From Labilithrix sp. (GTDB taxonomy: Bacteria > Myxococcota_A > Polyangia > Polyangiales > Polyangiaceae): 64,000 nucleotides of DNA. A program made the translations under genes and the position numbers. Shown here in pieces: positions 27,124 through 28,195 of this stretch. Location: the NCBI GenBank assembly GCA_046351255.1, contig JAXLYU010000005.1:1210583-1274582 (forward strand). Direction: 5' to 3'. Position 1 is the first letter of the stretch, and each line of letters starts with the position of its first letter. The notes under the pieces were generated by a model that ran no database searches, had not been told where the DNA came from, and worked only from the letters and a program-made list of their open reading frames with translations.

Positions 27124-27921
27124 TCATCGAGCCCCGAACGCCTCGTTCATCCAGGCTTCGCCGCGGGAGGGGTCGATGCCGATATGGCGAAACCCCGGCA
27201 GCACGACCTCGCGGAGACCGGCGTGAATGACCGCCTGGCGCTCTCTTCGCTCCATGATGCCGTGGTCCGCGCAGCCCGCGCCCGGGAGCGGGTGCGGATC
27301 GAAGAGCTCGCGGAAGCGCGCCTCGAAGAGCGTCGGCAGCCAGCCGGCGATCTCTCTTCGAATATCGTCGCTCACATAGCGCGACGTGAGATGGGCCCAT
27401 CCCATGCGCCCGTGATCGATCTCGTCGGTCAAAACGCTCTGATATCCCGCATGCGCGAGCGGAGACTTCGCGAGCTTCATTTGCGCCTCGAGCACCGGAC
27501 ACGCGAGCGTCTCGTTGATGCAGCACATCGCGGTCACGAGGAGGGCCGCGCGGAGCTCGCCCCCTGCGGGTACGAACATCGGTAGCGGCGCTGGCTGCGC
27601 GCCCGGCCAGCGCACCTCGTCCCCGCGGTAGCGCGCCGCGAGCGCGGCCGCGATCTGCGCGTGATGGAGCTCGTCGCGCACCGCTTCCGTCGCGATCTCG
27701 AGCACCGTCTCGTCCGCGCCGGTCTCCACGAGGACCGACACGAGCGCGCCGAAGCTCGCTCCCACACGGAGCTCCGAGCTCGCGCGCTCCTGCCAAATTC
27801 CCGCCAGCTCCGTGCGCTGCTCGCGCGTCGCGGAGTCGATGATCTCGTCCGGGATCGCGTCGATGGATGAGGCCTCCGCGTCGACCCGATGCCACCACGG
27901 ACGAGCGCGCTTGGCGCTCAC
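27124..27921 (-). CDS. ferritin-like diiron-carboxylate family protein (module B, paralogue of 17631..18455)
   Basis: GTG 27921 lies 4 nt after the upstream lipoprotein stop. It shares LAGIWQER..RVGASF, DELHHAQ, CINETLAC and SVLTDEIDHGRMGWAHL blocks with module A. The Arg/Pro-rich 113-aa N-extension of ORF 27124..28260 is rejected. Confidence 0.55.
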   Translation of the reverse strand: MSAKRARPWWHRVDAEASSIDAIPDEIIDSATREQRTELAGIWQERASSELRVGASFGALVSVLVETGADETVLEIATEAVRDELHHAQIAAALAARYRGDEVRWPGAQPAPLPMFVPAGGELRAALLVTAMCCINETLACPVLEAQMKLAKSPLAHAGYQSVLTDEIDHGRMGWAHLTSRYVSDDIRREIAGWLPTLFEARFRELFDPHPLPGAGCADHGIMERRERQAVIHAGLREVVLPGFRHIGIDPSRGEAWMNEAFGAR

Positions 27922-27925
27922 GCGA

Positions 27926-28195
27926 TCAGCCGCAGCAGACCCAGCCGGACGTCGAGCTGCCCGACGTGGACGACGTCGAGGAGCCCGTCGGAGCGCCCGA
28001 CGTCGTGCTCGCCGTGCCCGAAGAGCTGGCCGCGCCCGACGACGTGTTCGACGCGACGGTCCCGGAGGTGCTGCCCTGGCCCTGCTGCTGGGTCTTGCCG
28101 GTGTTCGAGTCGTCGTCGCCGCAGCCGGCCGCGGTGAGGCCCACTCCCAGGACGACGATGGTGTGAAAGAGCTTCGCCGTAAGTCGACTGTCCAT
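27926..28195 (-). CDS. Ser/Thr/Gly-rich small lipoprotein (module B partner; KLFHT signal)
   Basis: MDSRLTAKLFHTIVVLGVGLTAAGCG shares its signal-peptide core with the module A lipoprotein (SKLFHTVVAFG). The mature part is low-complexity STG-rich and ends WVCCG. Confidence 0.45.
   Translation of the reverse strand: MDSRLTAKLFHTIVVLGVGLTAAGCGDDDSNTGKTQQQGQGSTSGTVASNTSSGAASSSGTASTTSGAPTGSSTSSTSGSSTSGWVCCG

Follow-up and report, generated by a model that had tools for sequence, protein, structure and literature searches.

Twice within a 64,000-nt stretch of DNA from Labilithrix sp. (hereafter the window, within which all coordinates below are numbered unless a locus is named), a gene for a small lipoprotein precursor is followed, a few nucleotides later, by a gene for a ferritin-like protein. 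What holds two such genes together, and what might their products do for each other? An earlier note on this DNA had drawn attention to one of the pairs (copy B) as the counterpart of another (copy A), and had read the arrangement as a sign of selection on the pair. We found that the two genes form an obligately paired cassette, that purifying selection acts on both, and that the large gene encodes a protein whose predicted structure is that of a ferritin-like diiron oxygenase or oxidase. The explanation that we favour, although we would not quite call it probable, is a system like those that produce RiPPs (peptides that are made by ribosomes and modified after translation), in which the enzyme would oxidise a clade-specific motif of the pre-lipoprotein before the latter is exported by Sec and lipidated.

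Pairing of the two genes and selection on them

In a scan of one genome per species, with taxonomy taken from the record titles, the large gene was present at 79 genome loci, all but two of which are labelled as Myxococcota or as a myxobacterial group, chiefly Polyangia (Polyangiaceae, Labilithrix, Sandaracinaceae, Nannocystaceae and Kofleriaceae), and which include the cultured strains Sorangium sp. So ce176, Polyangium jinanense SDU13 and Polyangium sp. 15x6. The two-gene cassette is found almost only in Polyangia myxobacteria. The small gene lay directly upstream and on the same strand in all but one of the 79 loci with intact upstream DNA, its open reading frame (ORF) ending a few bases before the enzyme gene or overlapping it slightly. 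The apparent exceptions were contig truncations, variants outside the search pattern and one truncated enzyme gene; wherever the large gene was complete and the DNA before it intact, the small gene was directly upstream at every locus. The reverse search gave the same picture. The leader pattern of the small protein occurred 70 times in the six frames of the 822 kb of fetched loci, each time upstream of a family member, and a profile built from the leader only retrieved 40 small proteins of 60–77 aa from a collection of 5.8 billion proteins, with a family enzyme gene located −4 to +9 nt from the stop in five of five sampled contexts (E 5e-65 to 5e-119). Tested from the enzyme side and from the leader side, the pairing is obligate. 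The window itself holds exactly two modules, the family hidden Markov model (HMM) and the leader pattern each matching only these places.

No third conserved gene family (protease, exporter, reductase, regulator or transporter) was detected within 5 kb on either side of the module across 83 loci, an absence that fits a system borrowing the general lipoprotein pathway. The combination of A and B recurs on opposite strands, 4–5 kb apart, in related genomes, namely a Labilithrix metagenome-assembled genome (MAG; locus L001) and locus L082, in both of which DUF420 and pyridoxal phosphate (PLP)-decarboxylase genes lie between the two copies. The 5-nt and 4-nt spacers of the window are repeated in these orthologous modules (for the gap of the copy B type, stop 5996/GTG 6001 in L001 and 6777/6782 in L082), and the 4-nt spacer of copy B suggests translational coupling of the small gene and the enzyme gene.

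Base composition argues that the small ORFs are real reading frames, since the third-position GC content is 92% in small gene B and 86.5% in small gene A as against 53–55% in upstream extensions of the large-gene frames. A single 378-aa ORF spanning copy B (27124..28260, start 28260) was rejected on the same measure.

Purifying selection acts on both genes, with ratios of nonsynonymous to synonymous substitution rates (omega; Nei–Gojobori, window genes against orthologues in L082 and L083) of 0.12–0.13 for large gene A, 0.22 for large gene B, 0.30 for small gene A and 0.44 for small gene B as a whole. It bears most heavily on the small protein's leader and terminal motif: in small gene B, the signal peptide (codons 1–25) gave 0.066 against the L082 orthologue and the rest (residues 26–89, almost all linker) 0.69. 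The leader, although discarded in maturation, is more constrained than the enzyme. The corresponding comparison between paralogues A and B was set aside in favour of the orthologues as uninformative, because synonymous sites are saturated at this distance (36% protein identity, one 85-nt blastn stretch). That selection acts on the pair, as the earlier note had maintained, is thus borne out by the pairing at the 79 loci, by omega between orthologues and by the recurrence of the A-plus-B arrangement with its spacers in L001 and L082.

Natural fusions of the small and the large gene were considered and rejected, the long database entries being start-codon over-extensions into the wrong frame or, in the case of P0211, a probable frameshift. 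P0211 is a 417-aa metagenome entry that joins a leader-bearing, Cys-rich small protein to the diiron protein in one ORF with an Arg-rich junction. A frameshift or an assembly artefact is the probable cause, although the entry would be a natural fusion if real. A different variation is seen at L031, where a canonical module has directly downstream of it a gene for a 527-aa predicted lipoprotein (6796..8379 of that locus, plus strand). Towards the C-terminus of this protein, some 130 residues make up a distant ferritin-like domain, which has ExxH motifs and matches the family HMM at E 8e-9. The protein is possibly a relative of the enzyme that is exported.

The predicted diiron enzyme and its small partner

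Large proteins A and B and small protein A had no matches in Pfam, NCBIfam or the PDB with phmmer, small protein B had weak low-complexity matches only, and a profile of the enzyme family gave only marginal matches to the PDB. A word-index search returned 124 homologues of the large protein, including three Labilithrix sp. MAG entries (two named 'ferritin-like domain-containing protein' and one 'hypothetical protein' by NCBI), and an exhaustive profile search, with clusters formed at 50% identity, returned 326 representatives at E up to 1e-30, a number that rose to 2971 when E up to 1e-10 was admitted. Single family members matched COQ7, DUF455, AurF, Ferritin_2 and Rubrerythrin in Pfam weakly, all of these being of the same superfamily.

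An alignment of 72 enzyme sequences (122 in another) showed E50, E84, H87, E137, D166 and H170 to be invariant, as are R172, G174 and W175 in the 72-sequence alignment, while E167, C133, C134 and N136 are each retained by 90% or more of the 72. The predicted structure is a helical bundle with four core helices bearing the putative metal site, and the ligand set E50, E84-x-x-H87, E137 and E167-x-x-H170 lies mid-helix, with one or two ligands per core helix. This is the four-carboxylate/two-histidine arrangement (E...ExxH...E...ExxH), one of the ligand sets used among ferritin-like diiron oxygenases according to a review of heme-oxygenase-like diiron oxidases (HDOs; PMC13108848). The structural neighbours of the model, with their scores, were a VlmB homologue (6d9f, 16.7), the alpha subunit of soluble methane monooxygenase (16.5), aldehyde-deformylating oxygenase (16.4), PaaA/PaaC (about 16), ribonucleotide reductase (RNR) R2 (about 15), R2lox (14.8) and AurF/CmlI (11.5), whereas ferritins, bacterioferritins and Dps scored 9–11 over far fewer residues. 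The enzyme's structural kin are thus the ferritin-like diiron oxygenases and oxidases, comprising AurF/CmlI, aldehyde-deformylating oxygenase, PaaAC, the hydroxylases of bacterial multicomponent monooxygenases, RNR R2/R2lox and 6d9f. On this modelled structure, the large protein is an enzyme of the ferritin-like diiron oxygenase/oxidase type with a canonical four-carboxylate/two-histidine site and not an iron-storage ferritin, and it departs from the ~140–180-aa four-helix subunit, assembled into a 12- or 24-mer cage, of ferritins, bacterioferritins and Dps. The term 'ferritin-like' used in the earlier note is accordingly apt for the fold, and does not extend to a resemblance to iron-storage proteins. 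The AurF/CmlI family profile PF11583 did not match at the Pfam threshold; the enzyme, by structure a member of the ferritin-like diiron oxygenase superfamily, fits none of the curated families there.

The N-terminus of the copy B enzyme (MSAKRARPWWHRVDAEA...) is no signal peptide, and its homologues leave no room for one, profile matches beginning at residues 4–25; the enzyme should therefore be cytoplasmic. Between core helices 2 and 3, a conserved non-helical loop of ~20 residues (residues 101–119 of the copy B enzyme, 27565..27621, minus strand) is confidently modelled and follows the pattern RYRGDxxxWPxPxPxxxPxFxP, in which W105, P106 and P114 are nearly invariant. This loop might serve as a lid or as a platform on which a peptide binds.

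The small proteins share a leader, whose consensus among 71 unique sequences is (R/K)-L(93%)-F(96%)-H(62%)-A/V/T-V/I-V(94%)-x-x-G(94%), with a Cys that in most of them sits 13–20 residues after the Leu. Under a lipobox rule of the PROSITE PS51257 type (basic n-region, uncharged h-region, [LIVMFWSTAG](2)-[LIVMFYSTAGCQ]-[AGS]-C, Cys at position 15–35), 59 of the 73 family members, both window copies included, are predicted lipoproteins, and the failures were mostly due solely to a Pro or Glu near the lipobox. Some leaders (at L025, L030, L032, L037, L039, L041, L058 and L078) have the form RR-x(0-2)-LF, such as RRSPLFS, DRRGLFR and MARRLFH, and faintly resemble the RRxFL motif of twin-arginine translocation (Tat) substrates; general export by Tat is unlikely, because twin basic residues occur in only ~10–15% of leaders.

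After the leader comes a linker of variable length, made up family-wide of A, G, S, T, P and D to 73%, so that the mature proteins range from 45 to 203 aa, and then a short motif that differs between clades. In the clade of copy B, this is W-x-x-C-[G/H/C] at the C-terminus: the extreme C-termini across all loci of the clade are WACCG, GWFCCG, GWAPCH, GWAPCC, GWLGC, AWVGC, WAQCC and GWVGCG, with a freely varying linker before them, and small protein B itself runs from MDSRLTAKLFHTIVVLGVGLTAAGCGDDD... to SSTSGWVCCG. In the clade of copy A, FC(D/E)xxWPTTKG precedes a domain with seven further invariant Cys. Other classes end in CPPGSE(R/I)PxPPCxxI[K/L/R], GW(P/H/S/Q)(P/T)TK or ...MVLIL, contain (F/W)PGIxPPP or, in Sorangium and Polyangium, have a Cys-rich CGCPCCW... 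domain. Which class a small protein belongs to goes with the clade of its enzyme in the tree, and several of the classes are centred on a Trp. The mature parts, which the earlier note had called unrelated, are indeed so when A and B are compared directly; family-wide the description fails, given the clade-specific short motifs. A further class of small protein (P0333 and P0334) has repeated VVDIG(V/I)xxDM(S/A) units after the leader and no Cys/Trp motif, and at the locus of P0333 (L087, 257..1242) the family enzyme still follows (E 5e-65).

Layout, kinship and surroundings of the two copies

The features of the two modules are collected in Table 1.

Table 1. Coordinates of the two modules and of the gene upstream of copy B, numbered within the window
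Feature	Position	Strand	Description
Copy B small gene	27926..28195	minus	Pre-lipoprotein; ATG 28195; 89-aa ORF; TGA stop 27928..27926
Copy B small gene, residues 1–25	28121..28195	minus	Family-specific signal/leader peptide MDSRLTAKLFHTIVVLGVGLTAAG with lipobox Cys25
Copy B small gene, residues 26–83	27947..28120	minus	Ser/Thr/Gly-rich linker, probably disordered
Copy B small gene, residues 84–89	27929..27946	minus	C-terminal motif GWVCCG; candidate modification site
Copy B spacer	27922..27925	minus	4 nt (tcgc) between small-gene stop and enzyme-gene GTG
Copy B large gene	27124..27921	minus	GTG 27921; 265 aa; ferritin-like diiron oxygenase/oxidase-type, predicted cytoplasmic
Copy B enzyme, predicted metal ligands	E50, 27772–27774; E84/H87, 27661–27672; E137, 27511–27513; E167/H170, 27412–27423	minus	
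Copy A module	17155..18455	plus	Same layout as copy B, 5-nt spacer
Copy A small gene	17155..17625	plus	Leader MSSKLFHTVVAFGITLGAASVGC, linker, FCEVAWPTTKG, then domain with seven further invariant Cys
Copy A WPTTKG motif	17362..17379	plus	Inside invariant FCEVAWPTTKG
Copy A spacer		plus	5 nt (tcgag) between small-gene end 17625 and large-gene ATG 17631
Copy A large gene	17631..18455	plus	ATG; 274 aa; paralogue of copy B diiron protein
Upstream secreted protein	28324..29262	minus	Two tandem ~110-aa repeats, 42% identity over 108 aa, E 4e-23

BLASTP aligned the two large proteins over 253 aa at 36% identity (E 7e-39), and the family HMM matches that of copy A at E 8e-78, with the DEYRH / NET / DEIDHGRIGWAH motifs present as in copy B. 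Alignment of the two small proteins is confined to the signal peptide (E 2e-7). At the nucleotide level, blastn found a single significant stretch of 85 nt (78% identity, E 7e-13), over the DEIDHGRxGWAHL codons; since only this one segment is significant, A and B are old paralogues and the duplication is not a recent one. The two copies fall in different deep clades. Most of what the earlier note had said of copy B therefore stands, namely that it is a second, diverged pair on the opposite strand that does not stem from recent duplication, that it has retained the signal peptide, and that its GTG lies 4 nt after the lipoprotein stop where copy A has 5 nt, both of which we read directly. From its homologues, in which this Met is invariant, the start of small gene A is likely ATG 17155 (MSSKLFH) rather than the alternative ATG 17125 upstream; M11, L15, F16, H17, C33, C76, W80–G85 and seven further Cys are invariant in an alignment of 24 sequences.

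The secreted protein encoded upstream of copy B matched no Pfam or NCBIfam family and is not conserved beside the module in other genomes, and is no part of the unit. It is internally repeated, as had been noticed before, the repetition consisting of the two long repeats of Table 1 and not merely of the 26-aa duplication then described, and the repeats include the near-identical stretch YAARPDNSG(V/S)AL(M/F)RY(A/V)AH. Between the copies (18406..27100) are genes for uncharacterised proteins of 391 and 286 aa, a DUF420 protein, a RibD_C protein, an HxlR regulator, a PLP-dependent decarboxylase, an uncharacterised 328-aa protein, a LysR regulator and a glutathione S-transferase. The gene order from DUF420 through to the ~328-aa protein is also seen in L083, and DUF420 together with the decarboxylase in L082 and L001. 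Upstream of copy A, as in L083, are genes for HutD, a metallophosphoesterase, an HDOD protein and a pyridine-nucleotide disulfide oxidoreductase.

A proposed maturation system, its rivals and its known counterparts

Under the proposed mechanism, each module would by itself be a complete system of two genes for RiPP-type maturation. The small gene would give rise to a pre-lipoprotein whose signal peptide doubles as a recognition leader, (R/K)LFHxVVxxG...C, followed by a disordered acidic or Ser/Thr-rich linker and then the clade-specific short motif, and the translationally coupled gene downstream to a cytoplasmic ferritin-like diiron oxygenase or oxidase using O2. While the precursor is still cytoplasmic, the enzyme would oxidise the motif, by hydroxylation or by an oxidative cross-link involving Trp or Cys, the target being the Trp and/or Cys of GWVCCG in copy B and WPTTKG in copy A. 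Sec, Lgt, LspA and Lnt would then export, lipidate and cleave the product, taking the place of a dedicated protease and exporter and leaving in the cell envelope a modified peptide or mini-protein anchored by its lipid. We infer that the small protein is the substrate of the enzyme and the leader is what the enzyme recognises, and likewise the type of chemistry and the location and function of the product, from an anatomy of leader, free linker and conserved core beside what is predicted to be a cytoplasmic O2-activating metalloenzyme. An exported precursor encoded next to an enzyme devoid of a signal peptide, as expected of a RiPP system, is what we see here, as judged from sequence alone.

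Several observations weigh against this proposal. The pairing, the motifs and the selection behind it are all computed, and no ferritin-like diiron enzyme is known, or was found in the literature searched, to modify a ribosomal peptide. When the copy B enzyme was fused to the mature small protein B and modelled with AlphaFold2, the enzyme part was unchanged and GWVCCG was not confidently docked: the predicted local distance difference test score was 39–56 in the linker and 34 in the last 10 residues, the tail lacking alignment depth. Motif classes that track enzyme clades are also expected from the co-inheritance of adjacent genes, and the enrichment of class-specific enzyme positions around the ligands (5/14 versus 40/244, p = 0.06) is too weak to be taken as support. 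Some motif classes, such as ...DAMVLIL, are without an obvious oxidisable hot spot, and the clade A motif is internal, its ~75-aa domain with seven invariant Cys that follows being large for a typical RiPP core.

The same facts might be accounted for if the two genes were linked otherwise than as enzyme and substrate, the diiron protein oxidising a small molecule or lipid in the cytoplasm and the lipoprotein acting, for example, as an envelope binder, carrier or receptor for the product, with the motif as its binding site. Tight pairing and co-inheritance need a shared function only, the structural neighbours that have been characterised all have small molecules, acyl chains or coenzyme A/acyl carrier protein thioesters as substrates, and the fusion model left the tail undocked. 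We nonetheless judge such a shared pathway unlikely, in view of the lack of any conserved transporter, reductase or further gene of a pathway in the surroundings; moreover, it leaves unexplained why a signal peptide that is removed should be the most constrained part (omega 0.066, with L, F, V and G above 93%), and why this leader occurs only with this enzyme. Alternatively, the diiron protein might bind the (R/K)LFH leader, either as a holdase or as an O2- or iron-sensing gate that governs whether or when the lipoprotein is exported, with the mature part left unmodified. The leader is shared family-wide and, like the enzyme core, extremely conserved, with mature parts that differ completely between clades; the enzyme is cytoplasmic, as is the N-terminal end of the signal peptide; and the Tat proofreading chaperones TorD and DmsD bind the leaders of their substrates, a few leaders of the RR-x-LF form being faintly Tat-like here. 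However, twin basic residues are as rare as stated above, the metal ligands, all six invariant or almost so, speak for catalysis, or for redox chemistry at the least, and short terminal motifs strongly conserved within clades are unneeded for pure gating, making this role an improbable one.

A pair that handles iron, with the large protein storing or detoxifying it like ferritin or Dps and the lipoprotein binding iron or another metal in the envelope, would be in keeping with the ferritin-superfamily fold, with the name 'ferritin-like domain-containing protein' given by NCBI to some homologues, and with the Cys/His-containing C-termini of clade B, which could bind metal; we hold it to be very unlikely for a protein whose predicted structure resembles diiron oxygenases and oxidases and not iron-storage ferritins. 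Most implausible of all would be a lipoprotein toxin and its immunity protein of the SitA/SitI kind, passed between cells by outer-membrane exchange; SitA toxins are the subject of PMC5562445. The layout is superficially similar (lipobox N-terminus, variable C-terminus, downstream cytoplasmic gene, myxobacterial host), but we found neither a C-terminal toxin domain nor a polymorphic immunity protein: the mature small proteins are mostly low-complexity linker with a motif of 5–16 residues in which no toxin domain was matched, and conservation, down to invariant metal ligands, marks the protein encoded downstream.

The preferred reading, oxidation of the pre-lipoprotein by its neighbour, lends itself directly to testing, since the family is large and obligately paired, two genes suffice, and cultured strains carry it. 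The cassette is described in no protein-family library or full text that we searched, and literature searches combining ferritin-like or diiron enzymes with RiPP or lipobox precursors and with myxobacteria returned only work on HDOs and on MNIOs (oxidative enzymes that depend on multinuclear non-heme iron). It is quite conceivable, if still short of likely, that this is the first ferritin-like diiron family to modify ribosomally made pre-lipoproteins, with a signal peptide as leader and at least seven interchangeable core-motif classes (counted as WxxC, CPPGSExPxPPCxxI[KLR], GWPTTK, WPTTKG plus Cys-rich domain, FPGIxPPP, xMVLIL and CGCPCCW...), and that a hidden repertoire of lipid-anchored modified peptides exists on the Polyangia envelope. 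If the enzyme–substrate relationship is real, ferritin-like diiron oxygenases would join MNIOs, radical S-adenosylmethionine enzymes, P450s and 2-oxoglutarate oxygenases as tailors of ribosomal peptides. Should the small protein not be a substrate, it would still be out of the ordinary, and in need of explaining, that one signal-peptide sequence is tied exclusively to one cytoplasmic metalloprotein.

In function, the closest parallel is DybA/DybH, together with the ChrH subfamily (PMC13056109), whose products are lipidated macrocyclic peptides that mature by the lipoprotein route. Like our cassette, DybA/DybH consists of a lipobox precursor and an iron enzyme, without a signal peptide, encoded alongside it. 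DybA was modified by the MNIO DybH upon co-expression in E. coli; DybH lacking a signal peptide, its authors place the reaction in the cytoplasm, and triacylation of the product was confirmed by mass spectrometry (PMC13056109). Both DybA and the cassette have a conserved Cys-containing motif near the C-terminus, and in DybA/DybH diacylglyceryl transfer, signal peptidase II and N-acylation, all supplied by the cell's general lipoprotein pathway, replace a dedicated protease and exporter, as we propose for the cassette. The two differ in that DybH is a multinuclear non-heme iron TIM barrel (DUF692), whereas the cassette enzyme is predicted to be a ferritin-like helical bundle and has no DUF692 match; in that the CPxCGxG core motif of the DybA/DybH type is absent from the cassette, whose leader is a different, family-specific sequence; and in that modification has been demonstrated for DybA and is put forward for the cassette from sequence.

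The bufferins (BufA/BufB/BufC) are likewise ribosomal proteins or peptides with an export signal; a cytoplasmic iron enzyme modifies them on Cys, after which they act in the envelope and often bind copper. Related MNIO substrates carrying Sec signal peptides include a virulence factor of nontypeable Haemophilus influenzae (PMC11252979). The cassette differs from bufferins in its enzyme superfamily and in having no partner gene of the DUF2063/RiPP recognition element type at its loci and, whereas bufferins are modified on Cys, many of its partner classes have no Cys in the motif. With neither the DUF692 TIM barrel nor a CPxCGxG or Cys-rich bufferin core found, it falls outside the MNIO systems. 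By analogy, then, the cassette may work like the signal-peptide and lipobox RiPP systems but is not a member of them and, were the enzyme–substrate reading true, would be a second, independent case of the lipoprotein pathway serving natural-product maturation.

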